Below are positions 23,093-57,819 of a stretch of DNA of 64,000 nt, piece by piece. Below the pieces are notes generated by a model. The model did no database searches. It saw nothing but the letters and a program-made list of their open reading frames with translations, and was not told where the DNA came from. The translations under genes were made by a program, and so were the position numbers. Where the stretch lies: sequence record DRR723986_2433. One strand, 5' to 3'. The stretch's first letter is position 1; the number at the start of each line of letters is the position of its first letter.

Positions 23093-24832
23093 GTGTCTGA
23101 ACCCGCTGACTTGCCAGTCATTGAGCTAAGTTACGCCATTGAGCTTTTGTCCAAAAAGCTCGAAATTCAGTCCGCCGAAGCTGAACAGTTAATTCGACTG
23201 GCAAAGCTGGTGCGCTTGCCTCGCGGCCAAACTTTGTTTGAACAAGGTCAGCCCAGCCATCATTTTTATCTCCTGTTGCAAGGTCAGTTAAAAGGGCAGC
23301 GTTTTCGCCCTGATGGTTTTCAAGACTTGACCCTTTCTTTTTTCCCGGGAGAAATGATCGGCGAGCTTGGTTTTTTTGATCAAGCCCCACGCACACTTTC
23401 AATCTCTGCTCGCAGAGACAGCGTATTACTTGAAATCGACCAAACTGCGCTCGAGAAGTTTGGTGAGTTCAGTCGCTCGGTTTATCACCACCTGATCCGA
23501 ATGCTGGTATCCCGTTTCAAGCGTGAACTTGGCTACAGTGGCCCCTTGAAGCAACACCAGTTCATTTTGTTTCAATCGTTTGTTCGCCCCGAGGGTTTGG
23601 GCACCCAGGCGGTTGAAGGCTTTCAGTCCGCCATGGCCCGGCATTGTGAGTTGCGACGCTGGAAACAGCTTGGTGAAGTAACCCCGCCGAGTTCTGTCAG
23701 TGCCAAAGACTGGGTGGTTGAAATGATTGAGACAGAACCTCTGGAAGCATTGGACGATCGTCTGATTGAAGAACTTGATTGCATGGTGGTCATGCTTTGC
23801 GCAAGCACCTTGAACGATTCGCGCAGTTGCGAGTTGCTGAAAGCGCAGTTGAAAAGCGCCGACGACGATTTGCCGGTTTGGTTTGTACTGGTGCATGAAG
23901 CGGCTTGGGTTGAGCAATCGGTGGTGGAGAGAATACGAAGTACTTTTGGCGGCGGTTTCAAGCTGTTGCATGTACGGCGTGGTCACCACTCTGACAACGC
24001 GCGCGTGGCACGGCATGTTTTGGGCCTCACCCTGGGCTTGGTACTGGGTGGTGGCGGTGCCCGTGGATTTGCACATGCCGGCTTTTTTCAGGCCCTCGAA
24101 GAGGCAGGTGTTGTAGTCGACTCAGTCGGCGGCACCTCCATGGGGGCTTTGGTGGGCGCACTCATTTCCTCCGGGCGCTCAGCGGCAGAGGTTAGCAAGG
24201 CGCTCGCCATCAGTTTCAAGAAAGGTTTGCCATTCAAACTGACAGACTACTGGATACCCAAACATGGCTTTGTGAAAAGCAAGGCTGTCGACGAGGTGTA
24301 TCAAAAAGCATTTGGTGATTCGTTAATTGAGGACCAGCCGATTCCGTTTTTCGCCATCAGTTGCAATTTGACGACGGGTAACCAGTTCCTGTTTGAACAA
24401 GGCCCGTTGTGGAAGGCTGTGCGCGCCAGTACTTCCATCCCGGTATTTTTTGAGCCATTCATGGCGGGCAGGCAGGTCATGGTGGATGGCGCCTTGGTGA
24501 ACAACGTACCGGTCGATTGCATGCGTGCCCGTGGTGCACGAAAAATTCTGACTGTCGATGTGGGTCTTGAAGAAGACATCACCGCGCACATGGTCAATGA
24601 CAGCAGTGTACAAATGCCCACCATGATGAAATCGCTCATGCGCGTCATAGAACTGGGTGGTATTGAGAAGTCACGGCAGGCCAAAGTGATCAGTGACCTG
24701 TATGTTCAACCCTCCATTGAAAAAATCGGATTGATGGAGTTTGAGCGAAGAGAAGAGATCGTTGCCTTGGGTTACGAGGCAGGGCGTCAGGCAATTCCGG
24801 ATATACTGGGCTTGCTTCACAAAACTACATAA
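23093..24832 (+). CDS. cNMP-binding domain + patatin-like phospholipase (NTE-like architecture)
   Basis: cNMP cassette IGELGFFDQAPRT; patatin GGGGARG, GTSMG, DGA motifs. Confidence 0.88.
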   Translation: MSEPADLPVIELSYAIELLSKKLEIQSAEAEQLIRLAKLVRLPRGQTLFEQGQPSHHFYLLLQGQLKGQRFRPDGFQDLTLSFFPGEMIGELGFFDQAPRTLSISARRDSVLLEIDQTALEKFGEFSRSVYHHLIRMLVSRFKRELGYSGPLKQHQFILFQSFVRPEGLGTQAVEGFQSAMARHCELRRWKQLGEVTPPSSVSAKDWVVEMIETEPLEALDDRLIEELDCMVVMLCASTLNDSRSCELLKAQLKSADDDLPVWFVLVHEAAWVEQSVVERIRSTFGGGFKLLHVRRGHHSDNARVARHVLGLTLGLVLGGGGARGFAHAGFFQALEEAGVVVDSVGGTSMGALVGALISSGRSAAEVSKALAISFKKGLPFKLTDYWIPKHGFVKSKAVDEVYQKAFGDSLIEDQPIPFFAISCNLTTGNQFLFEQGPLWKAVRASTSIPVFFEPFMAGRQVMVDGALVNNVPVDCMRARGARKILTVDVGLEEDITAHMVNDSSVQMPTMMKSLMRVIELGGIEKSRQAKVISDLYVQPSIEKIGLMEFERREEIVALGYEAGRQAIPDILGLLHKTT

Positions 24833-24862
24833 CAACGCAGTCGTCATTCTTACGAGGCTTTG

Positions 24863-25642
24863 ATGCAAAAACACTCTACGGTAGAGGTGTTGGGTTGCAG
24901 CGGCAGTATCGGTATTCCCGGACAAGGAACAACTAGCTTTCTGATCGACAGCGATATTTTGATCGATGCGGGCACAGGCCTGTGCGAACTTGATTTCGCC
25001 CGTCTCGAGCAAATTGAGCATGTATTGATTACCCATTCCCACCTGGACCACATTTGCGGTCTGCCCTTTTTGATCGACACGGTGGGTGTGGGGCGCAAAC
25101 GCCCACTGCGTGTTTACGCCACCCTCCCCACAATCAGGGCCTTGCAGCAACATATTTTCAATGAGGAAATATGGCCTGATTTCTCGAAAATTCCTACGGC
25201 AGAGAACCCGGTTCTGGAATATGTAGAGATACAACCGGAACAGGAACTGCTGTTCGGAGAACGCCGAATTACCACAGTGGAGGTGGATCACACCGTTCCA
25301 GCCGTGGGTGTTTTTTTGATTACACCCACCGGGGGTTGGTGCTTCTCCGGAGATACGCACCAAACAGACCGGTTATTCACTCTTATCAACCAGGCAAAAA
25401 AGGTAGATTATTTCTTTATCGAGGCTGCTTTTCCTGACAAAGAAAAATGGCTTGCAGATTTGGCCAAGCATTTGTGTCCAAGTTTGTTGTTTGGTGAGCT
25501 TCAAAAATTAAACGCAGCATGTGAAATCTGGATTAGTCACCTAAAACCCAGAGAGCACGACCAGATTCAAAAAGAGTTACAGCAGTATCCGGGAAGCCAG
25601 CCGCTGCGCATTCTATCGGCCGGAATGATTTTTAACATTTAA
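24863..25642 (+). CDS. Class II 3',5'-cyclic nucleotide phosphodiesterase (MBL fold)
   Basis: VLGCSG, IDAGTG, THSHLDH, FNEEIWPDF, HTVP, SGDT, SHLKP; no signal peptide, so cytoplasmic. Confidence 0.82.
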   Translation: MQKHSTVEVLGCSGSIGIPGQGTTSFLIDSDILIDAGTGLCELDFARLEQIEHVLITHSHLDHICGLPFLIDTVGVGRKRPLRVYATLPTIRALQQHIFNEEIWPDFSKIPTAENPVLEYVEIQPEQELLFGERRITTVEVDHTVPAVGVFLITPTGGWCFSGDTHQTDRLFTLINQAKKVDYFFIEAAFPDKEKWLADLAKHLCPSLLFGELQKLNAACEIWISHLKPREHDQIQKELQQYPGSQPLRILSAGMIFNI

Positions 25643-25660
25643 CGGTTACACCACATTTCT

Positions 25661-27304
25661 ATGAAATTCAAACTTTCCGCAGTCGCCTGCGCAGTGGTGC
25701 TGTTGGTCAATTCGCATTTGCAGTTCGCACATGCGCAGACCCCGGCTGAAAGCACGTCAAGTTCCATGTCCAGTGGCGACGAATATCAGGAACCCAGTTT
25801 TACAGTATCTGGTTTTGAAGTGGTGGGCCCCGAACTGGTGCCTCGTGCGCAGGTGATGTCTGTACTGGGCGGCTTTTCAGGCCGGGAAATTACTTTTTCC
25901 GATTTGCGAACTGCCACATCCGCTGTTGAGCAATTGCACGCCGAGGCGGGTTATGAAGTGGTTCGCGTACTGATTCCTGAACAGGAAATCAAGCCTGGCG
26001 AACGGCTTAAACTGCAAATTGTTGACGCGCGGCTGGATGTGATCACCGTGGCTGGTAATGACTATTTCACCGCGGAGTCGATTCAGGAAAGCCTGGTGGT
26101 GCTGAAACCGGGTGCCTTGATCAACACCGTGGACATGGATAAAAACCTGCGTTTGATCAATGACAACCCGGCGAAAATTGTGCGGGTACGCCTGGAGCCG
26201 AGTGACAAACCGGGCCTGGTGGATGCCAAAGTGCAGGTGTCGGATCAAAACCCTCTGGCAGCGTACCTGACACTGGACAATTCGGGTACCAATGCCACGG
26301 GTGATTTTCGGATGGGTTTGGCCCTGCAACACAACAATGCGTTCAACAGGGGGCACATGGCCTCGTTTCAATACGTGACTTCGCCTGGACGGTGGTCAGA
26401 TGTTGAAGTGTTCGGCCTGAATTACAAGGTGCCTTTTTATGGCCTGGACTCCATGCTGGAAATGGCTTACAGCGATTCCAACGTGGATGCGGGAAACATC
26501 GGTCTACCGGGAGGGGCCGCATTGTCTGTGGTTGGTGCCGGTACTTCGGCTGCAATTCGTTGGGTGAATTTGCTAGACCGTTTGGCCGGGTTTGATGCTC
26601 GTTTAACTTTCTCTCATGAAATTAAACAGTTTGTTAGTGATGTGAGAATTGTTGGTGGGGCGAAAGTTCCGATTCCTAATCTCGAAAGCAGACCCGTTGG
26701 CGTGTCGTATTCACTCTCCGAGGCATTTGATTCGCGGCAACGTGCTTTTCAGATTGGATATTTCAAAAATTACGTCACGGGTGGCAACAATTCGACCGCC
26801 CAGTACCAAATGACCAACCCGGCTGCTGAAGCCAATTTCGACGTGATTCGAGCCAATGCGAGTTGGTCAGAGCAGGTCATGCCCGGCTGGCGCCTGACTG
26901 CGCAGCTGGATGCGCAACACACCGATTACTCACTGATTCCCGGTGAACAATTTGGTGCGGGGGGAGTGTATTCAGTGCGCGGTTTCGAGGAACGGGTGAT
27001 TTCCGCAGACCGGGGAACCCGACAGTCACTTGAATTGATGGGGCCGAACGTCAGCAAAAGTTTCGGCAACTTGTTTGAACGTTTGCAGTTTGTCGGTTTT
27101 GTTGATGCGGCGCAGTTGAAATTCAACAACCCTGTGTTTGGCTCTCCAGTTGAGCCGCACCTCATGTCTTATGGTGTGGGTGCCCGTTTTGCCTTCTCGC
27201 CCAAGCATCAATTCCGAGTTGACCTGGCCAAGGTTGTGTCAGGTGTGCCTATTCAACCGCATGGTGACGTCATGTTGCACGTCACATTTGCCACTTCTCT
27301 GTAA
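25661..27304 (+). CDS. TpsB (ShlB/FhaC/HecB) two-partner secretion transporter
   Basis: Signal peptide, two POTRA-like segments, LDNSG, loop-6 motif SVRGF, SYGVGARF. Confidence 0.9.
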   Translation: MKFKLSAVACAVVLLVNSHLQFAHAQTPAESTSSSMSSGDEYQEPSFTVSGFEVVGPELVPRAQVMSVLGGFSGREITFSDLRTATSAVEQLHAEAGYEVVRVLIPEQEIKPGERLKLQIVDARLDVITVAGNDYFTAESIQESLVVLKPGALINTVDMDKNLRLINDNPAKIVRVRLEPSDKPGLVDAKVQVSDQNPLAAYLTLDNSGTNATGDFRMGLALQHNNAFNRGHMASFQYVTSPGRWSDVEVFGLNYKVPFYGLDSMLEMAYSDSNVDAGNIGLPGGAALSVVGAGTSAAIRWVNLLDRLAGFDARLTFSHEIKQFVSDVRIVGGAKVPIPNLESRPVGVSYSLSEAFDSRQRAFQIGYFKNYVTGGNNSTAQYQMTNPAAEANFDVIRANASWSEQVMPGWRLTAQLDAQHTDYSLIPGEQFGAGGVYSVRGFEERVISADRGTRQSLELMGPNVSKSFGNLFERLQFVGFVDAAQLKFNNPVFGSPVEPHLMSYGVGARFAFSPKHQFRVDLAKVVSGVPIQPHGDVMLHVTFATSL

Positions 27305-27315
27305 GGAAAGACACC

Positions 27316-30300
27316 ATGAAATCCAATCGTCTTTCGAGCCTTGGTGCAAATACACAGTTTCGGCGTAAAGCGGTGGCCTTGGGTGTTGCCATGGCCATAG
27401 CCAGTTCGGCTTATGCCAATCCCACTGGAATGTCGGTGGTTGCAGGGCAGGCCACCGCGCAAACCATGGGTAATCTGATGCAAATTACCAATACGCCAGG
27501 TGCCATTTTGAATTGGCAACAGTTCAATATTGATGTTGGGCAAACCACTCAGTTTATTCAACAGAATGCGGCCAGCCAGGTTTTTAACCGCGTTACCGGT
27601 GGTGATGTGTCCCAAATTCTTGGCACGTTGCAAAGCAACGGGCAAGTATTTTTGATCAACCCGGCGGGCGTGTTTTTTGGTCAGGGCGCTGTGGTGGATA
27701 CCGCAGGCTTTTTGGCCAGTACACTCGCAGCGTCTGACACCGATTTGTTGAACGGACATTTGCGTTTCAACGATTCCACGGGAACAGCGGGCAACATCGT
27801 CAACCAGGGCTCATTGACCACGCATTCGGGTGGCTCCATTGTTCTATTGGCCCCCAGTATTGAAAACAGCGGCATTATTCATGCAGACGGAGAGGTGCTT
27901 TTGGCTGCTGGTCATAGTGTGACCATTGTGGACATGAAGCATCCCACCATTGGTTTGACCGTTGCTTCCAAGAGCGGCGACAAAGCTGTGAACCTGGGTC
28001 AAATCATCAGTAAAAATGCCTCCCTGTTTTCGCATTTGGTGAAAAACAGTGGCGTGGTTGAAGCCACGAGTGCACAGGTGGGCGAGGGCGGTGTTGTTCG
28101 GTTCATCGCCCAAGGCGATGCATTGGTGGGTGGGCAGGTTCTTGCCGAAAGTACCCAGGGCCAAGGTGGTGAAATTGACATCACCGGCCAACGCGTGGCG
28201 GTGCTGAGCGGTGCCCGCATTTCTGCGGATGGCGCCACAGGCGGCGGCACAGTGCATGTGGGCGGTGGCTGGAAAGGGCAAGATGACAGCTTGGCGAATT
28301 CGCAGCAAACGGTGGTGCAGGCCAATACGCATATTTCTGCGAATGCCACAGTCAACGGCAACGGTGGTGAGGTGGTGGTGTGGGCCGACGGGCACACGGC
28401 CGTTGATTCTGAAGTGCAAGCCAAGGGTGGCGCACTGGGGGGAAATGGTGGTCGGGTAGAAACCTCGGGCAAGCAAAGCCTGGCAGTGAATGTGGCTGCG
28501 AACACCTCGGCAGCCAAGGGTGAGGCAGGGCAGTGGTTGATTGATCCCGCCAATTTGACGATTGTGGATCAAATTCCTCAAGGTGGTTTTAATCTGGAGA
28601 ACAGCTCTCAAAGCCCGTTTTTTTCTACTGACGATATCTCGTCAACCTTCTCGCCGACTGAGTCATTTCTCTTGAACAGTACCGTAGTGGATGGTTTGGA
28701 AAACAACGGTTTTGTACAAATTTATACCACTGGTACGCAACCAGGCGACGGTAATTTGACCATTGCGGCTCCTGTCCTGATTGACCAGAACAACTCTCAA
28801 TCGACCGGTATCAATCCAGAACTATTTCTGGAAGCGAAAGGCGAAATCAACATTGACGCCGCTGTGGGCTTGATGCCCGGGCAGCAAGTGTTTGATGGGT
28901 TCGATTTGTTCCTGAGTTATGACATTGCCAAACCGGTGTATGTCGATGCTCCGCTGTACCTGGGCAACAGCGGCAATTTGATTTTGTCGCCATACGATAC
29001 TGGTACGGCTTTGCCCACCAACACAATGGGCCAGTTGCCACTCGACGGCGTGAATTTGCTGTCGGGAATGAATACTGGCTCAAGTGGCCCGTTGGCACTT
29101 AATCGAATCACTGTAACCAGCGCAGTGGCCACGGATCCGATGACCCAGCAAAGTTATATTGTCAGTCCGGAGAAAACAGTAAAACTCAATGTACTGGGTG
29201 CAAACCTTCAGGTGAATCAATTAAGCCTGTTTGGAAGTGAGGTAACCCCTGCCACTGACATTCGCGTTGGCGTAGACAATTTTGAGTTACCAACACCCAT
29301 TCAAGGGAATTTGCAGTACAACTCTCTGGACGCGAATAGCTTGACCGTAGAGGCAGGCAGTACTGTGTCAACTTTCACGCTATTTGATCCGGAATTGTCA
29401 TTTGATTTGAATCCAAATACCAGTTTGAATCGCCTGATCTCCAGTGGTACGGTCAATTTCAACGGTGGCTTCAACGACATTGTCGAGATTGACACCAATG
29501 CAGGTACTTTGAATTTTTCAAACAGCGCCGGCAGCAGCAGTTCTCCTTTTGGCTTCTACCAAATTGGCGATATTGATGCAGGTACCGGTAGCACCATTAA
29601 TCTGGTGGGCTCCAGTTTGTACTATCAGAAAGCAATCCTCAACGGCACATTCAACATGATGTCCAACGAGTTTGGCTCATCCTCTTTCCTGAGTGCGATT
29701 GATACTGATTTAAACGGAAGTTTCAACTTTGGCCCGGGTTTCAACAACGCCAGTTTCCAGGCGTTGGGCATGGGCGCCAATTCCCGAATTAACCTGGCAG
29801 CAGGTTCTTTTCTTGAATTAGGGCGTGCTTTCAATTCTTCATCTTCAGGACCAAGTGTTACTCCCATGGTTCCGGAAAAGCAGCCTGGTGCCTATATTTC
29901 CAGTACCCAAGGACAGTTTGTGGCCCAACAGGGTGCGCGTATTGTCATGAACGGCGCCGCCACGGATGACTTTATTCACTCCATGCCGCCGCTGCAAACC
30001 AGCGAGTCTTCAAGCTTTTCCTCTGGAGGGGCAGTAGTTGACATCACCGGCCTGGATGGGCGTCTGGAGGCACCGGTGACCATTGAAGTCAATGGTTTCT
30101 TGAATTCCATCCAAACCAGCACCGAGAACTTCGACCTCAACTCAGAGGTCAGCATGTCAACTCCCATCAACACCATGGTGATTCAGTCTGCAAACATTCA
30201 AGTCAACGCCGGAGGCGACGGACGCTCTCTCAGAATCGGCGAGGTACAGTTCTCGCAGCCGCTGAATACCGATTTTCAACCTGTTGTTGATCTGGATTTC

Positions 30301-32694: not shown

Positions 32695-32705
32695 GGACCA
32701 ACAAC

Positions 32706-34163: not shown

Positions 34164-34176
34164 TGGTGGTTGAGGC

Positions 34177-36441: not shown

Positions 36442-36471
36442 AACGAAGTGATTCAACCCAACTTAGTCGGA

Positions 36472-38934: not shown

Positions 38935-38937
38935 GGT

Positions 38938-40287: not shown

Positions 40288-40290
40288 GGC

Positions 40291-44190: not shown

Positions 44191-44206
44191 CAACAAACAA
44201 CCTGCC

Positions 44207-48462: not shown

Positions 48463-48495
48463 CGACTTCTAACTCGCTCATCTTTGTTTTTCAAT

Positions 48496-48517
48496 GGACT
48501 TGCTTGCCTGCAAGTCC
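48496..48517. other. 8-bp intergenic hairpin GGACTTGC-N6-GCAAGTCC without U-tract
   Basis: Seen directly in the only large gap (103 bp) of the cytochrome operon; possible mRNA stability/processing element or operator. Confidence 0.35.
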
Positions 48518-48565
48518 CCAGTTCACTGCTGGTCTGTCTACTCAAGTTACTGCGTCGAATGGCGA

Positions 48566-50032
48566 TTACTTCGCTGCCACTTCTTTGTTGTGTATATGGT
48601 ATTCGTGGCATACGCCACAGTTGGACTGAACTTTGTTTAACACGGGTTTGCTGCCTGCATGGCAAGTTTGGCATCCCTCAATGGTGGGCATCAGCACATC
48701 GCTGGCTTCCTCTGATTTGCTTGCTTTGTGACAACTTTCACAACTTTCAAATTCGTGTGCTTTGTGATCAAACTTGGCCATGGGCATCCAAGGATGGGCA
48801 GGATTGATCTCGGCAATCTTGTACTGCGGCATTCTGGATCCGGAAGTCTTGGTGTTACCCAAGCCATCCACCGCCTTTACTTCGTGGCACACAGAGCAGG
48901 CCGTATTTTCAAACAGCTCCACTGTTGCAAATGCTGCTTGTGCACGGGGGTTTCCGCTCAAGTTTCGCAAGTTGGAGCGATTCGGGTCTTTTTCACCGGG
49001 GCGCGCGCGCAACACCGCACGCTGTGCATTCACTTTGTTGCGTTCTTCGGGGTGCAAAGCCAAATAACTATAGAACTCTTCAACCGTGCTGAGCACTGCA
49101 TCAACAGGGCCGTGGGGCACTTGCCGATCGGGCAGGGCTGGCTCAAAACTCAGCTTGTGGCACTCCTGGCAGTGGCTTTCCATGTTGAGTGTTTTAAACC
49201 CGGTTGCGGTATCTGCTGGCTCGTGGCAGTTGGCACATTCCATCACCACTTTCTTGCTTGGGCTGTCAATACCCTTTGGGTCTAGGTGAACATCGTGCGG
49301 AAACTTCAGGTTCGTTTTTTCAACAATCGGTGTGTTGGCCGCCATGCGGATACGACGCAAATCACTGGGTTCAGGGCCTGTGGCCACAGTAATCCGAAAT
49401 GCTGGGTGTTTGTCGCCGGCGAAGTCGCTGGCAGCAAGAGTTTCAGTTTTTGGTGCCACAGTTTTAATGTCGGTGTGGCAAGCTGCACAGTCGGCACCTA
49501 CAAAATGTTTGTTCTGTTCTGCGAGGCTTTCGCGTCCTTTGTGATCGCGGTGACAGCTTGCGCAACGGCCTTCTTCGAATGACGTGTCGGGCAGTGTTTG
49601 CTCGGTTACATGTAAGCCCATATTGCCGTGGCATACCAGGCAGCTTTCATCTTTGACACGCGAGAAGTTGCCGGCGTGGCAAGCCTGGCAATCGGCCTCC
49701 AGGTTCGAGTGGACGGAAGCCAGCGGACCAGGGTTCCAGATGGAATCCAAGGCCAGTGCCGTGGTACTGCGTGTGTTTGAAACCTGTGTGCTTTGAACAC
49801 TGGGATGCGCGTTAACAGGCAGTTTTTCAGCAGACACTACCTGTGGTTTTACGTTTGAACCGGCGGGCTCAAGGCCAAACAGCCCAGGTGCCTGAATCGC
49901 CACCAGGGGTAAAATAAAAAATGCGAAAAGAATCGGTACAAAAAGCAACCAGGAAAGTGGGCGTTTCAGCCCCAGGGGCTTTTGCAAGGCCTGTTGCTCA
50001 CGTTGAAGCGGGCTTTTTTCTTGTTCGGCCAT
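48566..50032 (-). CDS. Membrane-anchored decaheme cytochrome c (c3-like)
   Basis: N-terminal TM (WLLFVPILFAFFILPLV); 10 CxxCH (CQACH, CLVCH, CASCH, CAACH, CANCH, CQECH, CSVCH, CESCH, CQTCH, CGVCH); distal-His patterns FPHDVH, FDHKAH. Confidence 0.9.
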   Translation of the reverse strand: MAEQEKSPLQREQQALQKPLGLKRPLSWLLFVPILFAFFILPLVAIQAPGLFGLEPAGSNVKPQVVSAEKLPVNAHPSVQSTQVSNTRSTTALALDSIWNPGPLASVHSNLEADCQACHAGNFSRVKDESCLVCHGNMGLHVTEQTLPDTSFEEGRCASCHRDHKGRESLAEQNKHFVGADCAACHTDIKTVAPKTETLAASDFAGDKHPAFRITVATGPEPSDLRRIRMAANTPIVEKTNLKFPHDVHLDPKGIDSPSKKVVMECANCHEPADTATGFKTLNMESHCQECHKLSFEPALPDRQVPHGPVDAVLSTVEEFYSYLALHPEERNKVNAQRAVLRARPGEKDPNRSNLRNLSGNPRAQAAFATVELFENTACSVCHEVKAVDGLGNTKTSGSRMPQYKIAEINPAHPWMPMAKFDHKAHEFESCESCHKASKSEEASDVLMPTIEGCQTCHAGSKPVLNKVQSNCGVCHEYHIHNKEVAAK

Positions 50033-50038
50033 GTTCGC

Positions 50039-50854
50039 TTACCAGTAAATAAAAACAGACAACACATGCGCAATCAACGCAGCCAGCAAACCAAACGACA
50101 AAGGCACATGGATGGATAGCCACAGCTCAAGCCAATATCGCAAGTGGTAATAACGGCGCAGTTGTCTCAATGCGCGCAGTCGCTGCACCTGGTTTCTGTA
50201 TAAGTCAGAGAGACTGTCAACCCGTGTCATTTCCTGTTGCAGGTCATTCACGGCTTTCTCGGTGGCGCAGTCTTTCACTACGCCTTTGCGCTGACTGCTG
50301 CGATCCGGGTAGATGCTTTGCTTGTGAGAAGCGGCAATGATTCGTCCCACCAGGTCACCGGAATTCTTGATTTGTTTTTGAGCTTCGCGGTCCAAGGCCT
50401 GAATCTGTTCCACAATTTGCTCGGGACTTTGCCGATTCAGTACGTTTGACATTTCTGCGGGATACCGCAAGTAAAAACTGAGGCCCCAAACGCCTGTGCC
50501 AATGGTCGCCATCGTCAACACATAGGCCAATGAATGCACGTTCCAGCCAATCTGAAAACCTGTGTGCAATGTGGCAACCACCGACAATGCCAAGCCCAGA
50601 TAAATATGCGCCGACACCCAGCCACGCAGGTTGCCTGTCTCATTGGCATACTGGCGTTTGCGTACACCAAACCACATGAGCCAAAGAATGAGTAGGGCAC
50701 CTATGGTGCCAAGGGTATAGCCCAACCAGGTTCCGCCATTGGCATTGATTCTGGGTTGGTCAAAAAGGTAGGCAAACGACGAAACGAGCGTTAGCAGCAA
50801 GGCCCATTTCAGGAAAACAAATCGTTTGTAGTTGAACAGGTTGTCCTGAATCAT
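50039..50854 (-). CDS. Integral membrane protein with four TM histidines (putative di-heme b, ferric-reductase-like)
   Basis: About 5 TM helices; His pairs SAHIYLG...TLHTG and SIHVPLS...IAHV. Confidence 0.65.
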   Translation of the reverse strand: MIQDNLFNYKRFVFLKWALLLTLVSSFAYLFDQPRINANGGTWLGYTLGTIGALLILWLMWFGVRKRQYANETGNLRGWVSAHIYLGLALSVVATLHTGFQIGWNVHSLAYVLTMATIGTGVWGLSFYLRYPAEMSNVLNRQSPEQIVEQIQALDREAQKQIKNSGDLVGRIIAASHKQSIYPDRSSQRKGVVKDCATEKAVNDLQQEMTRVDSLSDLYRNQVQRLRALRQLRRYYHLRYWLELWLSIHVPLSFGLLAALIAHVLSVFIYW

Positions 50855-50983
50855 GTGTTCAGCGCCTAGGCAAATAGTCAGAGGTAATGCTGCTCAGGGT
50901 TTACGCTTATTTCTGTATAGCCATTAATGTTACGTGATCATGGGTGATGTTAGTATCCCTACTTCATGTCTGGGGGTTAACAA

Positions 50984-52228
50984 TTGAGTCTTGGTGCGGC
51001 CTTTGTGGGTTTTATCTTCCTGTTTTTCCTAGTATTTTGCCTATATTTTGCGTGGAACGGATTTTTTTTATCCAATGATCAAAAAACCACGAATGAGGCT
51101 GACTCTCTGGAAGATAGCCCAGAATGGCGAGCGTTTTTAAACCGACGCCAGGAAATTGAAACGGACCCAACACTCGACGCTGCGAGCAAACAGGTTTTAA
51201 TCGACAATTGGCAAACCATGGCCAGTGAGAGCAAGCCCCACATGGCCACCGCTGCCGTGTCCCCAATGCGTCTGATATGGGCCCGGCCCGCGGCCATGCC
51301 TTGGCTGATTGCAGGCAGCCTGGGATTCGCGGTGCTGTTCACCTATTTGATTGGTGCAATGCACCCCGGTGCATTGAAGTGGCCTGAATCGAATGTTGTA
51401 GATGCGCTTGCACCAAGTGTTGATCAAGCAGTTGCCGCTTCAGCCGGGCATCCCGGAGACGGCGTCAATTTGCAGGACAGGCTGGCGGGCTTGCAGGCAA
51501 GGCTTGCTGCGCAGCCAGACGATTTGCGCGGTTGGGTGCTGCTGGCGCGCACTCACGCCTCCATGTCCAATTACCTTGAAAGTGCCAATGCCTTGAAAAA
51601 AGCGCTGGAACTCACGCCAGGGCATCCAGATATTCTCGCAGATTTGGCCGACATGACCGCCATGGCACAGGGCCGCCAACTGGCTGGTGAACCGGAAACT
51701 TACATCGCAGCTGCACTACAAAGTGATCCTCGCCATGAAAAGGCCCTTGCACTGGCAGCCAGTGCTGCCGAGCAGGCAGGTGATCAAGACAAAGCGCAGG
51801 TGTACTGGCAACTGCTTAGCCAGGTTCAGCAAGCGAGCTTGAAACAATCGAATCCGGCACCCGAGGACATTCTCACCACAGTTAACGTAACTGTTCCTGA
51901 AGCAGCATTAAAAAGCCTGAAGGAATCATCGGCACTGTTTGTATTCTTAAAGGCGCAGCCCGGCCCCGGCATGCCACTGGCCGTGGTTCGCGTGCCTGCC
52001 TCGCAGTTAAGCGCAAGTAAGCTCGCGGTGCGCATCGGCCCGGGCGACTTTATTCAGGAAGGTGGTGTTGGGATTTTGCCTGATACCGTGCACATTCAAG
52101 CGCGCTTGTCGATTCAAGGTATGGCCCAAACAGGTGCTGGTGATATCGAGTCAAGCTGGCAAACGCTTCCTCGCAATCAACTTGCTTCGGGTGTGGATTT
52201 AAGTTTGCCGCAGGCCCCGGCGAATTGA
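50984..52228 (+). CDS. ccmI: CcmI/CycH-type TPR cytochrome c biogenesis factor
   Basis: Two N-terminal TMs, TPR (QPDDLRGWVLLART), C-terminal LFVFLKA..GMPLAV..ARLS..GD domain; first gene of the ccm operon; TTG start uncertain. Confidence 0.8.
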   Translation: MSLGAAFVGFIFLFFLVFCLYFAWNGFFLSNDQKTTNEADSLEDSPEWRAFLNRRQEIETDPTLDAASKQVLIDNWQTMASESKPHMATAAVSPMRLIWARPAAMPWLIAGSLGFAVLFTYLIGAMHPGALKWPESNVVDALAPSVDQAVAASAGHPGDGVNLQDRLAGLQARLAAQPDDLRGWVLLARTHASMSNYLESANALKKALELTPGHPDILADLADMTAMAQGRQLAGEPETYIAAALQSDPRHEKALALAASAAEQAGDQDKAQVYWQLLSQVQQASLKQSNPAPEDILTTVNVTVPEAALKSLKESSALFVFLKAQPGPGMPLAVVRVPASQLSASKLAVRIGPGDFIQEGGVGILPDTVHIQARLSIQGMAQTGAGDIESSWQTLPRNQLASGVDLSLPQAPAN

Positions 52229-53565
52229 TGATGCGTATTTCACTCTCGGCCGCTTGCCTGCAAGTTAAAACGCCGTCTCTGGAAGCGGCGGGTGTGGTGT
52301 TGTCAGGCCCAATCGGGTTTGAATTAAAACCGGGCGAAATCAATGTCATTCGGGGTGGAAATGGTGTTGGAAAATCAACCCTGTTGAGATTGATGAGCAA
52401 TTCATTGCCGGGCCAGTGTGTTTTATTCAAACCTGAGTTTGGCCTGCGTGATGAATTGTTGGTCCACACACACCTGCAAATTGTATTGAGTCATCTTCGT
52501 ACCAATGCCCATAGCGTTGAATCTTTGCTTGAAAGGGTAGGGCTTGCGAACTGGCAATACGAGCGAATCGGCACTCTTTCATCCGGGCAGCGTGCACGTC
52601 TGGGTTTGTGCAGCTTGTTGGCGGGGCAATTCAAAGTGTGGTTGCTCGATGAGCCCTTGAATGCGCTGGATCACGAGGGTATTGCAACCTTGGCCGGGGC
52701 AATGGCCACGCATTTTGATCAGGGTGGCATTGTGTTCATGGCCACCCACGTGGACGCGTTGGTATTAACGCAGCACCTGGCTGGTGCACCCGTAAAAGAG
52801 GGCAGGCTGGAACAGGGCAAGTTGCTTGGCGGTTTTGTAGCAGATGCCCACCTGGATGATTCCCGCGTAGATGATTCCCCTGCACGGGAGGCTGGGCATG
52901 CTGCAAAAGTGAATTTTCCCGCCTTGCTTCAACGCGACTGGGCGGTGACTTTGGGCAATCCACAAGCACTGCTGTGGGGTGCTTTGTTTCACTGGATGGT
53001 GCTGAGTTTTTTCGGAATAGGACTGGGAAAGCCAAGTGCCGAATTCGCTCAAGTGGCCGTGTGGGTCAGTTTGTTACTCGCTTTGATGCTGGGGGCCAAA
53101 GACTGGTTTGCGGAAGATCACCGCACTGGGTGGCTTGGCTTTGTGGCGGGCCTTAATCCTGACAACATTGCTTTGTATTGGTTGGTCAGGGTTATATTTT
53201 TGGTGCTATGCCAAGTGGTGGTACTGGTACCTGTCACAGGTTTGGTGGCGTTACAACTGGGGCTTCACGCCACACAAACCATCGACCTGGCTTTCGCCTT
53301 GAGCGTGGGTATTTGGGCCGTGGCGCCTCTGTTGGGCTTGATCGCGCTGTTGGTGATGCTGACTCGGGGTGGTGCAGTACTGGTCTATTTGTTGGCTTTG
53401 CCACTGTTGGTCCCCGTTCTGATTTTCGGGCTTGAGGCCAGTCAGGCCAATGGCTTCGGTCGCAGTGCAATTGCGCCGCTTGCTGTGCTTGCGAGTTTGG
53501 GAATGTTGGGTTGTTTGCTGGGGCCATTCGTGGCCAAGCGCCTTGTTGGTTTAATACAGGAATGA
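52225..53565 (+). CDS. ccmAB: Fused CcmA (ABC ATPase)-CcmB (permease)
   Basis: GGNGVGKST, LSSGQ, WLLDEP, ATH, then 6-TM CcmB with FAEDHRTG and LALPLLVPVLIFG in one frame. Confidence 0.82.
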   Translation: MMMRISLSAACLQVKTPSLEAAGVVLSGPIGFELKPGEINVIRGGNGVGKSTLLRLMSNSLPGQCVLFKPEFGLRDELLVHTHLQIVLSHLRTNAHSVESLLERVGLANWQYERIGTLSSGQRARLGLCSLLAGQFKVWLLDEPLNALDHEGIATLAGAMATHFDQGGIVFMATHVDALVLTQHLAGAPVKEGRLEQGKLLGGFVADAHLDDSRVDDSPAREAGHAAKVNFPALLQRDWAVTLGNPQALLWGALFHWMVLSFFGIGLGKPSAEFAQVAVWVSLLLALMLGAKDWFAEDHRTGWLGFVAGLNPDNIALYWLVRVIFLVLCQVVVLVPVTGLVALQLGLHATQTIDLAFALSVGIWAVAPLLGLIALLVMLTRGGAVLVYLLALPLLVPVLIFGLEASQANGFGRSAIAPLAVLASLGMLGCLLGPFVAKRLVGLIQE

Positions 53566-54260
53566 CGATGTTTGCACAGTTGGCTTCACCCCCCAAGTTC
53601 CATGCCCTGGCCAGTTGGCTGTGGGTGTGGCTACTCGCAGCGGGTATTCTTCTGCTGGGGTTTGGTTTGTACACGGGTTTGTTTCTGGCACCTGTTGATG
53701 TTCAGCAAGGCGAAGTGTATCGGGCTATTTATGTGCATGTGCCCGCCGCCTGGATGTCGATGTTCCTGTACTTGGTGGCCTGTGGCTACGCGGGTTTGAA
53801 TTGGGTCTATCGCAGCGATGTATCGGCAGTCATGATGCGTGCGCTGCTGCCCACCGGTGCATGGATGACTGTGTTGGCCCTGGTCACCGGTGCGCTGTGG
53901 GGCAAGCCCACTTGGGGCACCTACTGGGTGTGGGATGCAAGAATGACCTCGGAGCTTTTGCTGTTGTTTATCTATTTGGGCTTGATTGCCTTGGGTCAAC
54001 TGACTACCAACCCGGCCAAGGCCGATCGTGTATTGGCAGTTGGACTGTTGATTGGTGCTGTGAACATTCCCTTGATTTACCTCTCGGTGGTTTTCTGGAA
54101 TACGCTTCATCAGGGTTACAGCGTGTCGATGAGTGGCAGCCGGATTCACCCTGACATTGCCATGGGCATGTGGCTCAGCGTGTTGGGGTTCTGGTTGATT
54201 TGTGCCAGCACGGTGTTGAACCGTGCGCGGCGTTTGTTGGTACAAAGGCGTTGGTTGTAA
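53562..54260 (+). CDS. ccmC: Heme exporter CcmC
   Basis: YVHVP, WWD motif WGKPTWGTYWVWDARMT, WNTLHQ; ATGA overlap. Confidence 0.93.
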   Translation: MTMFAQLASPPKFHALASWLWVWLLAAGILLLGFGLYTGLFLAPVDVQQGEVYRAIYVHVPAAWMSMFLYLVACGYAGLNWVYRSDVSAVMMRALLPTGAWMTVLALVTGALWGKPTWGTYWVWDARMTSELLLLFIYLGLIALGQLTTNPAKADRVLAVGLLIGAVNIPLIYLSVVFWNTLHQGYSVSMSGSRIHPDIAMGMWLSVLGFWLICASTVLNRARRLLVQRRWL

Positions 54261-54278
54261 AGGGCAAAAGGCAAAACA

Positions 54279-54452
54279 ATGATTCTTGATGCATGGCAAA
54301 CAATTTGGGCTTGCGTGGGTTTAAGCCTCTTGATTCTGTTTGTGGATGGTGTGCTGGCCGGTCGAGCGGGCCCCAGCAAAACCGATCTGGTTCGTCAAAA
54401 AAAGAGAGATGACCGAATGGTTGGGCTCAGTAAAGGGGTAGGTAATGAGTAA
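54279..54452 (+). CDS. ccmD: Probable CcmD (57 aa, absent from ORF track)
   Basis: [57 protein letters not shown]: single TM + basic tail, between ccmC and ccmE. Confidence 0.7.
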
Positions 54453-54852
54453 TGCACGCGCGCATCGCGCGGCCTGGCTAGCGGCCATTGTTGTGGTGGC
54501 TTTGGGTTTTGGTATTGCCCTGGTCAAAGTGTTCAACGAAAACCTTGTTTTCTTCTACACCCCTACACAAATATTGGGTGGTGAAGTGCCCAAGGGTGAA
54601 AAAACCTATCGCCTGGGTGGCATGGTTGAAGTGGGTAGCGTTCAACGCGAGGCCGACTCATTGAAAGTTCGGTTTGTGGTCAGCGACATGAATAACAAAG
54701 TGCCGGTGGAGTTCACGGGCATCGTGCCAGATTTGTTCAAAGAGGGCACCGGGGTTGTGGCAGATGGCCAATGGGACGGCACCACCTTCAAAGCCTCTGA
54801 GGTGTTGGCCAAACACGATGAAGACTACATGCCGCCCGGAGTTGAGCAGTGA
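54445..54852 (+). CDS. ccmE: Heme chaperone CcmE
   Basis: [30 protein letters not shown] (HxxxY). Confidence 0.94.
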
Positions 54853-56840
54853 TCGCATTGATATCCCAGTTCAGTTTGGCACTGGCCACCGTGTTGGCCT
54901 TGTTTGGCGCAGTCGCTGGTTTTGCCGCAGTGCGCGGGGTATATAGCCATGCGCCAGCAGTCCCTTTGTTGAACTCGATTCAACGCAATGTGCTGCTGGT
55001 CTCTGGGCTCGTCGGTATTGCCTTTGTTGGTTTGGTCTATTCCTTTGTGATCAGCGATTTTTCAGTTCGCAACGTGGCTGAAAATTCCAACCTGGCTCTG
55101 CCCGTTTTTTACAAAGTGGCCGCAAGTTGGGGTTCTCATGAAGGCTCCTTTTTGCTTTGGGTGCTTATGTTTGCAGGCTGGACCCAAGCTGTGGCCTGGG
55201 CCAAATTCGAGGTGTCGGCTTGTTTCAAAGTGCGCGTACTGGCCACCTTGCAATTGGTGCTGGTGGGTTTTCTGCTTTATTTGTTAATTGCCAGCAATCC
55301 CTTTGAATACCTGTACCCCACACCCGTCGACGGGCGAGACCTGAACCCGCTGCTGCAAGACATCGGCATGATCATTCATCCGCCCCTGTTGTACATGGGT
55401 TATGTGGGCTTCGCAGTGACCTTTGCCTTCGCAGTGGCTGGTTTGCTGGAGGGCCGGTTCGACATGACCTGGGCGCGCTGGAGTCGCCCCTGGACCAATG
55501 TGGCGTGGGCGTTTCTAACCATGGGCATTGCTTTGGGAAGCTGGTGGGCTTACCGGGAACTGGGTTGGGGCGGTTGGTGGTTTTGGGACCCGGTCGAAAA
55601 TGCATCTCTAATGCCCTGGTTGGCAGGTACAGCGCTCATTCATTCACTGGCCGTGTCTGAAAAAAGGGGGGCCCTGCGCAGTTGGACCTTGTTGCTGGCA
55701 CTCACTACCTTTGCCCTGTCCCTGTTGGGTACATTCCTGGTTCGCTCGGGTGTGCTTACCTCGGTGCATGCTTTCGCAACAGACCCTGAACGTGGCGTTT
55801 TCATTCTCGCCTTGTTGTTTATTGTGGTGGGCGCTTCCTACATTCTGTATGCGCTTAAAACAGGTGAAGTGGGGCAGGGTGGCAATTTCAAGGTCACTGG
55901 TCGTGAGTCGCTGTTGCTGTCCAACAATGTGCTCATGAGCGCTGCCTTGGTGGCCGTGATGTTGGGTACGCTTTACCCCTTGGTGGTCGAGGTGATCGGC
56001 GGGCGGAAAATGTCAGTGGGGCAGCCTTATTTTGAAGCCATGTTTGCACCCATTCTATTGCCCGCGGTGTTGCTCATGGCCTTGGGCCCCGATTCACGCT
56101 GGCGCGAAACCTCGTTGGCGCAATACATCAAGCCCGGGGTAGTGGCGCTTGCTGTTGCCGCGCTGGTGTTGTTGGGAGCAGCCTTGTTCAATGGTTATTT
56201 CAGCTTGTTGTGGGCCGTGGGTGTGGTGTGTGCGGTGTTCATGGCGGTGGCCACGCTGGCCCATGCTGCGGTGGCCACGCGCAAAGCAGGGGCCAGTATT
56301 CCTGAAAGTGGTTTGCTGTATCGCATTCGCCGTTTGTCCCTTTCTTATTGGGGCATGGTGCTTGCGCATTTGGGAGTGGCCGTGTTTGTGGTGGGCGTCA
56401 GTTGGGTAAAGACCTTCGAGACTGAAACCGATGCCGTGCTCAAGCCAGGAGAAACTTCTGAGATTGGCCCATGGCGGGTTACGTTCATTGGTGTTGATTC
56501 CGTGCAACGACAAAACCATGTGGCTGCTCTGGGCGTGTTCGAATTAACGCGTGGCGACGGCACGGTGATCCACTTGCTGGAACCCGAGAAGCGCCGCTAT
56601 CAAAGTTCCGAACAAATCATGACCGAGGCTGCCATTCACAGCGACTGGTTTTCAGATGTGTACATCGGCCTTGGCGATGCAGTTCAAAGCAGTGCAAACT
56701 CCGGGGCGTGGGGCGTGCGGCTGTATTACAAGCCATTGATCAACCTGATTTGGTGGGGTTGTGCCTTGATGGCACTGGGTGGTTTGCTTACCGTGTTTGA
56801 TCGCCGTTACCGGCCCAGAAAGAATGCGGTGGCCTCATGA
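54849..56840 (+). CDS. ccmF: Cytochrome c heme lyase CcmF
   Basis: [32 protein letters not shown]. Confidence 0.95.
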
Positions 56841-57406
56841 TCAAGAAACGCTTGCGCCTGTATTTGCCAATTTTGGTCTTGTTGTTTTTGGGTGTGTTTT
56901 TGCTCCGTGGTTTGTGGCTTGATCCGAAAAAATTACCCTCCGCATTGATTGGCAAGGAAGCCCCTGCAGTCGTGTTGCCCGTACTCAGCTTTAACGGGCC
57001 AGAGGCGGATGCTGTGCAACTTGTAAACATTCAAACCCTTCAAAACATCGATGAATTGAAAGGCCAGCCTTGGGTACTGAATGTGTTTGCGTCGTGGTGC
57101 CAGGCTTGCTTGGTGGAGCACCCGCATTTCATAGCTTTGGCGAAACAGAAAAAAATCAAGCTGGTGGGTTTGGCTTACAAAGACGACCTGGCCAATACCC
57201 GCCGTTGGCTGGCGCAATATGGCAATCCTTATGATTTGATCCTGATTGACCAGCAAGGGCAGTACGGAATTGAGTTGGGTGTGTATGGCGTGCCCGAAAC
57301 TTTTTTAATGAGCGCCAACAACACCATTATTCACAAGCAGGTAGGGCCAATACCTGCCGACTATTTCGACAGCATGGCACTGCCCGCAATAGAGGCGTCC
57401 CGATGA
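56837..57406 (+). CDS. ccmG: Thiol:disulfide oxidoreductase CcmG/DsbE
   Basis: ASWCQACLVEHP, GVYGVPETF. Confidence 0.92.
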   Translation: MIKKRLRLYLPILVLLFLGVFLLRGLWLDPKKLPSALIGKEAPAVVLPVLSFNGPEADAVQLVNIQTLQNIDELKGQPWVLNVFASWCQACLVEHPHFIALAKQKKIKLVGLAYKDDLANTRRWLAQYGNPYDLILIDQQGQYGIELGVYGVPETFLMSANNTIIHKQVGPIPADYFDSMALPAIEASR

Positions 57407-57819
57407 ATGTGAATGATCTGAATGCAGCAGAGAAAGAACAGTACAAGGAAGTGGCCAGCGAGCTTCGTTGCCTGGTGTGCCAGAACCAGTCGCTGGCTGA
57501 TTCACATGCTTCCTTGGCGGTCGATTTAAAAGAGAAAATCGCCGAGCAAATTCGCGCTGGTAAAACCAACGAAGAAATTAAAAGCTACATGCAAGATCGC
57601 TATGGCGAGTTTGTGATCTACAAGCCCGCTTACAGCATGGAAAATGCGGTGTTGTGGTTGGGGCCATTTGTGGTGTTGCTGATTGCCGTGGTGCTGGCGC
57701 GCAAGGTGGGGAAAGGCTACAAAATACCCAAAGATGAAATGCCCCCTACCATGGCTGGCGACAGTGACTGGGCCGAAAAACTGTACGACGACGCAAGAAA
57801 ACGCGAAGCCAAGAAATAA
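57403..57819 (+). CDS. ccmH: Cytochrome c biogenesis protein CcmH (CcmL)
   Basis: LRCLVCQNQSLADS, RYGEFV, C-terminal TM. Confidence 0.92.
   Translation: MNVNDLNAAEKEQYKEVASELRCLVCQNQSLADSHASLAVDLKEKIAEQIRAGKTNEEIKSYMQDRYGEFVIYKPAYSMENAVLWLGPFVVLLIAVVLARKVGKGYKIPKDEMPPTMAGDSDWAEKLYDDARKREAKK

Follow-up and report, generated by a model that had tools for sequence, protein, structure and literature searches.

A locus of three adjacent and separable gene modules (A, B and C) lies at positions 23093-57819 of a 64,000-nt window, the whole stretch of DNA analysed (record DRR723986_2433), which belongs to a Limnobacter genome, to judge by hits of 70-81% identity and by loci of 98% identity. We read this locus as a system for exporting electrons from NAD(P)H to the periplasm, gated by cyclic nucleotide monophosphates (cNMPs) and fed in this organism by one sensor cyclase, a reading in which our confidence is evenly divided. 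The seven genes of module B, the presumed electron-transfer part, form a self-contained cassette that is conserved among Beta- and Gammaproteobacteria. Module A, built around a CHASE2 adenylate cyclase, is a new member of an already known kind, and module C encodes cytochrome c maturation (System I). An earlier note on this DNA had proposed a single, undescribed circuit, in which surface sensing raises cyclic AMP (cAMP) and so switches on a trans-envelope multihaem conduit. The gene content, coordinates, gaps and haem counts given in that note were all confirmed by an open reading frame (ORF) map with Pfam and NCBIfam scans, and its interpretation as a whole was supported in part.

A flavoprotein cassette with a proposed role in electron export

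The flavo-Fe-S protein of module B (820 aa; 36472-38934, minus strand) consists of a thioredoxin-reductase-like FAD/NAD(P)H domain (Pyr_redox), two cNMP-binding domains and a four-cluster ferredoxin (4Fe-4S) domain. Both dinucleotide-binding motifs are present in the flavin domain and four Cys-cluster motifs follow, while no redox-active cysteine pair was seen in the flavin-domain sequence. The relatives in the PDB are a thioredoxin-reductase-like ferredoxin-NADP reductase, YpdA and HycB-type ferredoxins, and the middle part matches the regulatory subunits of protein kinases A and G, and CRP. More than 5954 relatives of the protein were detected, and two cNMP-binding domains with conserved phosphate-binding-cassette residues were always present in those examined. 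In an alignment of 15 sequences chosen from 120 listed matches, residues G440, E441, R448-R450, A452 and T453 of the first domain and G566, E567, R576 and A582 of the second were invariant. Since no signal peptide was visible by eye, the protein is probably cytoplasmic. This architecture suggests that electron flow is switched directly by cyclic nucleotides, whereas control of that kind is not known to us except through transcription, as with cAMP-CRP in Shewanella.

The second key component is a five-helix inner-membrane protein of 271 aa, probably a di-haem b protein (50039-50854, minus strand). Its two WX3HX13H motifs were found in 25 of 25 orthologs, and the four histidines H83, H97, H249 and H263 were invariant in 21 sequences. 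The Pfam scan assigned no family to this protein, neither the ferric reductase domain (FRD; PF01794) nor a quinone-site family, and its agreement with the FRD lies in the histidine spacing alone. It would be the only candidate in the cassette to pass electrons through the inner membrane. The flavoprotein gene stands immediately before the membrane-protein gene in three loci (L076, L077 and L079) and two genomes (G274 and G289), and this gene order suggests that the flavoprotein may dock on the membrane protein.

Three cytochromes of module B, all encoded on the minus strand, carry 24 CXXCH and one CX4CH haem sites in total. The membrane-anchored cytochrome c, cyt488 (48566-50032), has 10 CXXCH motifs, matches to Cytochrome_C7 and c3, and one N-terminal hydrophobic helix recognised by eye. 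The periplasmic cytochrome cyt449 (38938-40287) has four CXXCH and one CX4CH; four CXXCH were counted in 19 of the 22 ortholog frames picked, the other three being wrong or fused frames. The largest, cyt1301 (1301 aa; 40291-44196), combines 10 CXXCH motifs with a C-terminal LVIVD beta-propeller (4e-18), and the same count was obtained for 20 of 22 picked frames, the remainder again being wrong or fused. An extra CXXCH in the flavo-Fe-S protein is part of an Fe-S motif. The cassette is completed by a probable lipoprotein with three HbpS-like (GlcG/DUF336) stretches (46453-48462, minus strand; Pfam HbpS-like, 6.1e-25), in which LVSC followed by a glycine run was seen by eye near the N-terminus, and by an outer-membrane beta-barrel of 753 aa (44207-46468, minus strand). 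The intergenic gaps within the operon are 3, 3, 10, -16, 103 and 6 bp.

In the mechanism that we propose, the cytoplasmic flavoprotein would oxidise NAD(P)H, and its four Fe-S clusters would relay the electrons to the di-haem-b membrane protein; they would thereby cross the inner membrane to the anchored cyt488, and then pass through cyt449 to cyt1301. The two cNMP-binding domains, situated between the flavin and Fe-S parts, would set this flux post-translationally; such a switch would have a rationale, because an unregulated drain of NAD(P)H would be costly. The path drawn in the earlier note, from a cytoplasmic NAD(P)H-type flavoprotein via the four-histidine membrane protein to about 25 c-type haems, is supported. 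As the presumed terminal enzyme, cyt1301 may work together with the HbpS-like lipoprotein and an AlgE/OprD-like channel admitting or releasing a small substrate. The assignment of cyt1301 as more like a terminal enzyme than a wire follows from its 130 residues per haem and its high conservation, 64-75% identity across non-Limnobacter loci as compared with 51-58% for the flavoprotein over the same loci. For this protein a sequence search of the PDB gave no relative, and a profile search nothing useful.

The barrel bears on the route beyond the periplasm. Its AlphaFold2 model shows about 18 strands and an N-terminal SH3-like domain, the best Foldseek match is AlgE (E 3.5e-16) followed by the OprD/Occ channels, and the C-terminal residue is aromatic in 23 of 23 listed orthologs. 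Because the model resembles AlgE and OprD/Occ, the barrel is predicted to be a solute channel and not a cytochrome sheath; a barrel wide enough to sheathe a decahaem was not seen in this model, a negative result of moderate strength given its pLDDT of 61.9. The earlier note had taken module B for a porin-cytochrome conduit to the cell surface, serving extracellular reduction or a NOX-like burst. This is suggested by the position of the barrel gene beside a large decahaem gene, by the description of LVIVD repeats as cell-surface-associated in the available text of one preprint (bioRxiv 10.1101/2022.05.06.490989), and by the way in which the authors of three reports, as far as their accessible texts go, read related clusters (PMC5566968; PMC13264449; bioRxiv 10.1101/2023.11.21.568154). 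With a barrel matching AlgE and OprD/Occ instead of a wide sheath, however, and a cyt1301 that appears enzyme-like in haem spacing and cross-class conservation and shows no lipobox by eye, we consider the surface conduit distinctly unlikely, and the designation "trans-envelope" is not supported.

The distribution of the cassette was analysed with 80 flavoprotein loci, fetched with 10-kb flanks using the 15-relative alignment. Among 600 pattern matches in one-genome-per-species contigs, at least 575 were confirmed as relatives of the cassette flavoprotein. Synteny was counted over 66 non-Limnobacter-like loci, a locus being evaluable for a gene when its flank reaches that gene. The genes for cyt449 (56/59), cyt1301 (47/50), the barrel (42/45), the HbpS-like protein (41/44) and cyt488 (40/44) were syntenic in nearly all evaluable loci. 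Of the 50 genomes that the loci come from, 49 have the membrane-protein gene, placed just beyond cyt488. In L077 and L079 the order is rearranged, starting with the flavoprotein and then the membrane protein. One locus (L046) has a flavoprotein homologue, 53% identical, with no cassette gene in its 10-kb flanks. Outside Limnobacter, no conserved gene appeared downstream of the flavoprotein gene, the largest cluster there comprising 8 loci without a Pfam family.

An even sample of the order (301 genomes, 144 genera) gave a similar association. The cyt1301 gene was detected in 14 genomes of 8 genera, all 14 of which also have the flavoprotein, on the same contig in 12 and on different contigs in two (G053 and G111). 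Five further genomes carry the flavoprotein without cyt1301 (E<=1e-20). Headed by the flavoprotein, the G274 cluster also encodes a WX3HX13H membrane protein and cytochromes with 10, 4 and 5 haems, and G289 has a minimal cluster of flavoprotein, membrane protein and a 9-haem cytochrome; from these two clusters, the conserved core is taken as flavoprotein, membrane protein and anchored decahaem.

The cassette is widespread among aerobic bacteria of soil and water, and most of the lineages that carry it, Duganella, Lysobacter and Arenimonas among them, are aerobic heterotrophs. This distribution argues against the opposite direction of flow, in which an external or periplasmic donor such as Fe(II), Mn(II) or reduced sulfur would feed the quinone pool or NAD(P)+. 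Reduction of NAD(P)+ from c-type haems is moreover steeply uphill, and the membrane protein lacks a quinone-site family in the Pfam scan. Inward flow is in line with the PCC4 model of iron oxidisers, drawn inward in the available text of PMC5566968, and with the oxidation of thiosulfate by Limnobacter mentioned in that of PMC13264449; we nevertheless judge it very unlikely. Outward flow, as in the NAD(P)H-to-periplasm path preferred here, is favoured on thermodynamic grounds.

The sensor cyclase and its probable link to the cassette

Part of the case for linking module A to module B comes from the nearest genome available for comparison (G001), with which the window shares 82% of sampled words. 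The single PF00211 match in G001 is the operon A cyclase, PF01295 and PF01928 gave zero matches, and thus no other nucleotide cyclase was found with the class III, class I and CYTH profiles searched. Because module A holds the only cyclase found in the species, the cNMP-binding domains of module B would have to listen to module A. Only five cNMP-binding proteins were found in G001. One of them is a 272-aa protein with cNMP_binding and HTH_Crp_2 domains, encoded away from the locus; the statement of the earlier note that no CRP-type transcription factor is present stands for 23093-57819, as judged by Pfam scans, and does not extend to the genome. Another, on contig C49 (L116 55-2244), is a SulP-STAS anion transporter of 729 aa whose cNMP-binding domain is C-terminal, a further enzyme- or transporter-type reader of the single cyclase.

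All six genes of module A lie on the plus strand, separated by 27, 18, 11, -10 and 13 bp. The cyclase (34177-36441; CHASE2 5.2e-59, Guanylate_cyc 4.8e-20) is a CHASE2 sensor fused to a class III cyclase domain, with metal-binding aspartates and a Lys/Thr pair that we take to be the catalytic residues. The phosphodiesterase (24860-25642; Lactamase_B_2 6.2e-17, PDEase_II 3.4e-14) is of class II type with a metallo-beta-lactamase fold; its PDEase_II score is 53.1 bits against a cut-off of 23.7, and HSHLDH at residue 59 fits HxHLDH, presumably the signature of class II cAMP phosphodiesterases. The reader of the module is a cNMP-binding patatin-like phospholipase (23093-24832; Pfam cNMP_binding 1.4e-17, Patatin 6e-31) with GGGARG, GTSMG and DGA motifs, as we would expect of an active patatin. 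With these motifs the cyclase, phosphodiesterase and patatin are apparently active enzymes, in agreement with the earlier note.

The remaining genes of module A encode envelope components. A TpsB outer-membrane transporter (25661-27304; Pfam ShlB 2.4e-22, POTRA_2 1.6e-10) and a 1792-aa TpsA exoprotein (27316-32694) make up a two-partner secretion (TPS) pair with the expected POTRA/ShlB and TPS domains, the latter at residues 34-261 of TpsA (2.4e-30); beyond it, the Pfam scan detected no further family in TpsA. A secreted protein with two FecR stretches (32685-34163; Pfam FecR 7.7e-17) has an N-terminus that resembles a signal peptide by eye. Its residues 205-300 match the LapA "retention module" (NCBIfam NF033682, E 3.6e-16), and by this likeness the protein may be held in an outer-membrane pore. 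In the proposed mechanism, the CHASE2 cyclase would act with a FecR-type periplasmic partner, the two-partner-secretion pair, the phosphodiesterase and the cNMP-patatin. A more specific version, in which an envelope or contact signal passes through TpsA/TpsB, FecR and CHASE2, and cAMP, bound to both cNMP-binding domains of the flavoprotein, then opens a quinone-bypassing valve from NAD(P)H to the periplasm and activates the phospholipase, is tentative, and we lean towards doubting it.

Modules A and B are convergent and separated by 30 bp, a gap in which a simple scan gave neither terminator nor promoter. Metatranscriptome contigs (four runs, two studies) span 30 of 30 bins of 31500-51400, indicating that DNA or RNA of a close relative was present; in one run a single 25-kb contig spans operons of both strands, which is no measure of transcription or co-regulation.

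For other genomes, the region after the flavoprotein gene was compared in loci with at least 3 kb of flank (11 Limnobacter-like, 50 others). A CHASE2 cyclase is located there in 10 of the 11 Limnobacter-like loci, and the eleventh has a phosphodiesterase in this position. The cyclase is also present in a 62%-identical Burkholderiaceae metagenome-assembled genome (MAG) with a shorter flank (L014), and class II phosphodiesterase homologues adjoin the flavo-Fe-S gene in L011 and L061. Cyclases or phosphodiesterases recur beside relatives of the cassette in four unrelated arrangements. In L025, genes for ShlB, a CHASE2 cyclase and a CHAT protein are convergent on the flavoprotein gene. In L081, a CHASE2 cyclase (39% identical), FecR and a SlipAM barrel are inserted between ccmAB and ccmI, beside the membrane-protein gene. 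The third is the class II phosphodiesterase beside the flavoprotein gene of L061, and the fourth, in G274, is a CHAT gene with a CHASE2 cyclase on the same strand as the cluster described above. Near the G289 cluster there is a calcineurin-like phosphoesterase without an assigned substrate specificity.

Two observations concern the cyclases in these arrangements. At L118 12967-15076 (G274), the CHASE2 cyclase is split inside the cyclase domain into frames of 547 and 142 aa, which could reflect a frameshift, a sequencing error or decay. In both L025 and L118, which are unrelated juxtapositions, the CHASE2 cyclase occurs together with CHAT-TPR proteins, and this suggests a wider CHAT-CHASE2 signalling unit.

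Several results weigh against cNMP gating of the cassette by module A. Outside the Limnobacter-like loci, the cyclase and the phosphodiesterase each occur after the flavoprotein gene in only 1 of 50 cases. Of 41 non-Limnobacter-like genomes, 3 have a CHASE2 gene at most 20 kb from the cassette; a rough estimate from copy number and genome size predicts about 2, so that clear enrichment is lacking. The cyclase orthogroup is itself widespread (145 of the 301 order genomes with a match at E<=1e-60), and its occurrence in 11 of 14 cassette genomes, compared with 134 of 287 without the cassette, is a weak difference uncorrected for kinship. In Duganella the core of module A is on a different contig from module B, and other Limnobacter species carry a second CHASE2 cyclase. 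Ligand binding by the flavoprotein domains is predicted from motifs, the fold search with the membrane protein returned generic helical bundles only (best Z 10.3), and the confidence of the barrel model is middling. Finally, a congener (G055; L121/L122, G055:C18:28000-60000) has undergone one deletion from tpsA to the front of the HbpS-like gene, which shows that the genus had this arrangement ancestrally and can do without it. The deletion removed the cyclase, flavoprotein, two cytochromes and barrel, and left the patatin, phosphodiesterase, tpsB (matched in two pieces), cyt488, membrane protein and ccm genes; asmA was not found in the L121/L122 stretch. The joint loss of cyclase and flavoprotein is not independent evidence of coupling.

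The Duganella ortholog of the cyclase (46-47% identical) is adjoined by a TpsB (33-34%); of the two Duganella cyclase loci examined, both have a phosphodiesterase-like gene and one (L085) has a FecR protein. Cyclase and phosphodiesterase genes are also adjacent in G043.

With these data it is fairly unlikely, in our estimate, that modules A and B are neighbours by descent only and functionally independent. cAMP would then act via the patatin, the SulP-STAS-cNMP transporter and the CRP/FNR-type factor, and the flavoprotein domains would bind another ligand or be purely structural. The confinement of the adjacency to one lineage (10/11 against 1/50), the separate location of the A core in Duganella, the other cNMP readers of G001 and the lack of clear CHASE2 enrichment are all as such independence would have it. 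Against it stand the invariance of the phosphate-binding-cassette residues across families, the single cyclase of G001, and the four unrelated arrangements in which cyclases or phosphodiesterases flank cassette relatives.

We conclude that wiring of A to B is likely in the Limnobacter species of the window, and that A plus B (with or without C) is not conserved as a system. In view of the 1/50 count and the Duganella arrangement, the three operons do not form one recurring unit. A lack of association between A and B in other genomes, named in the earlier note as the first half of what would tell against its proposal, is largely what we observed. What is new is a recurring but sporadic association of CHASE2 cyclases or phosphodiesterases with a cassette that contains cNMP-binding domains, together with a species, possessing a single cyclase, where the association can be tested; a term-based literature search, not covering supplements, found no printed account of this link. 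The Limnobacter locus is a clean test bed, since cultured members of the genus exist, the nearest genome has one cyclase, and writer, eraser and two enzyme readers are encoded side by side. If the tentative cAMP-opened valve is real, the same logic would hold, with cyclases encoded elsewhere, in several hundred proteobacterial species carrying the cassette.

Cytochrome c maturation genes and the locus boundaries

Module C (50984-57819, plus strand) is divergent from module B across 129 bp and encodes ccmI, a fused ccmAB, ccmC, a ccmD candidate, ccmE, ccmF, ccmG and ccmH. The ATP-binding cassette (ABC) ATPase CcmA (residues 30-146) and CcmB (residues 233-437) are joined in one 446-aa frame (52225-53565), and with the 57-aa ccmD candidate the System I set from ccmA to ccmI is present. 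The whole locus is bounded by asmA on the left (20690-22987) and ettA on the right (57876-59537).

CcmF is single-copy in G001, indicating that this is the single System I of the genome, and it was found in 49 of the 50 genomes behind the cassette loci. Adjacency of ccm to B, defined as a distance of no more than about 13 kb between CcmF and the membrane-protein gene on one contig, was observed in 26 of 37 evaluable genomes, with CcmF clearly elsewhere or not found in the other 11; 13 of the 50 were unevaluable because of a contig end or because the membrane-protein gene was not found. The orientation relative to B is divergent in most genomes and co-directional in Duganella. ResB of System II is present in 16 of the 50 genomes, including all 10 Limnobacter-like and 4 Duganella genomes, and among these 16 ccm adjoins B in 13 of 14 evaluable cases. 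In the order sample CcmF occurs in 192 of 301 genomes, a tally that includes one unpublished genome (G074), and in 14 of 14 cassette carriers. The cassette therefore seems to need System I and to be syntenically tied to it, and module B would be linked to this single System I as its largest client. The claim that the conduit has "its own" Ccm machinery agrees with this synteny but is overstated, because ccm is single-copy and G055 keeps ccm without most of module B.

Two genomes have additional copies. On contig C116 of G031 the membrane-protein gene (8482 and 42091) and ccmF (1699 and 48974) each occur twice, as mirror images; cassette and ccm have either undergone an inverted duplication here or been misassembled. 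In the Duganella genome G018, a second CcmF is encoded on another contig besides the copy next to the cassette.

Relation to described systems

Module B belongs with the ptd/PCC4 cassette as a variant that shares its head and differs in the tail, and the description "undescribed" is wrong for this operon, its kin having been reported, as far as the available texts go, in PMC5566968, PMC13264449 and bioRxiv 10.1101/2023.11.21.568154. He et al. (2017) predicted PCC4 with a porin, cytochromes of 4, 5 and 10 haems and other redox proteins; in one subgroup an Fe-S gene lies upstream of the gene for the inner-membrane protein, whose five helices and two WX3HX13H motifs were likened to the ferric-reductase/NOX domain (PMC5566968). 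Elbon, Stewart and Glass named ptdABCDEFG, in which PtdE is a cyclic-nucleotide-binding protein with 4Fe-4S clusters and PtdF is ferric-reductase-like, and the accessible text calls the ptd function "completely unknown" (bioRxiv 10.1101/2023.11.21.568154).

By comparison with these partial accounts, module B shares the five-helix membrane protein with WX3HX13H motifs on helices 3 and 5, the periplasmic decahaem (cyt488) and tetrahaem (cyt449), the FAD/NAD(P) oxidoreductase with cNMP-binding and 4Fe-4S domains, and a barrel gene. In contrast to ptd/PCC4, the oxidoreductase and cNMP/Fe-S parts are fused in the window into one 820-aa protein, the pentahaem/beta-sandwich PtdA is replaced by the 1301-aa decahaem with an LVIVD propeller, and the triple HbpS-like lipoprotein is extra, although the supplements of those reports may list this variant. 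The ptd-like cluster of G274 is 49% identical to the window in the flavoprotein, 36% in the membrane protein, 29% in cyt488 and 40-44% in cyt449. At the tail, cyt1301 has no detectable similarity to the G274 pentahaem (hhalign probability 33% over 41 columns), nor has the window barrel to a 524-aa G274 ORF that is presumed to be the porin.

"Group 1" of a 2026 study of Sterkfontein MAGs, likened here by description, has a 4-5 kb decahaem gene beside a porin of about 20 strands, with a "ferredoxin-NADP reductase" gene nearby in 7 of 11 clusters, and a Limnobacter MAG has a porin-cytochrome cluster (PMC13264449). The account is descriptive, and its available text does not mention cNMP domains, cyclases or ccm linkage (PMC13264449). 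Two other candidates were rejected: in the Uet cluster of Tenderiales the LVIVD protein is a separate, non-haem orthogroup, and PCC3 has much larger haem counts.

The NOX/FRD and Fre-MsrQ systems are analogous in that two stacked b-haems receive electrons from a cytoplasmic NAD(P)H flavoprotein and send them outward, a comparison also found in the accessible part of PMC5566968. The b-haems there are held by paired histidines on two helices, as would be the case here by analogy. The window protein differs in giving no Pfam FRD match, in the Fe-S relay and cNMP-binding domains interposed, and in its acceptor, a chain of c-type haems.

MtrCAB, Pio and Mto resemble module B in that decahaem cytochromes are encoded beside an outer-membrane barrel gene. 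The MtrB barrel has 26 strands, whereas that of the window has about 18 and is AlgE-like. Family matches of operon B (DmsE family, 3e-5 and 5.9e-6; MtrC domain, 1.1e-4) are weak, local and below their cut-offs. The electron source would also differ, with an NAD(P)H enzyme dedicated to the task in place of the quinol pool.

For module A, pairing of CHASE2 and FecR is also described with histidine kinases in Burkholderia, according to the available text of PMC5192318. The closest studied counterpart is the CyaD1/CyaD2/CyaK-NsrA-Clr system of Sinorhizobium meliloti, in which, on the accessible parts of the reports, CHASE2 cyclases owe their activation to the outer-membrane barrel NsrA, Clr is the reader, and the FecR-domain protein SMc02177 belongs to the Clr regulon (PMC13001267; PMC5498481). 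The two systems differ in the outer-membrane partner, NsrA in S. meliloti and TpsB with the 1792-aa TpsA in the window, and in the output, which is a CRP-type transcription factor in S. meliloti, whereas the local readers in the window are enzymes.

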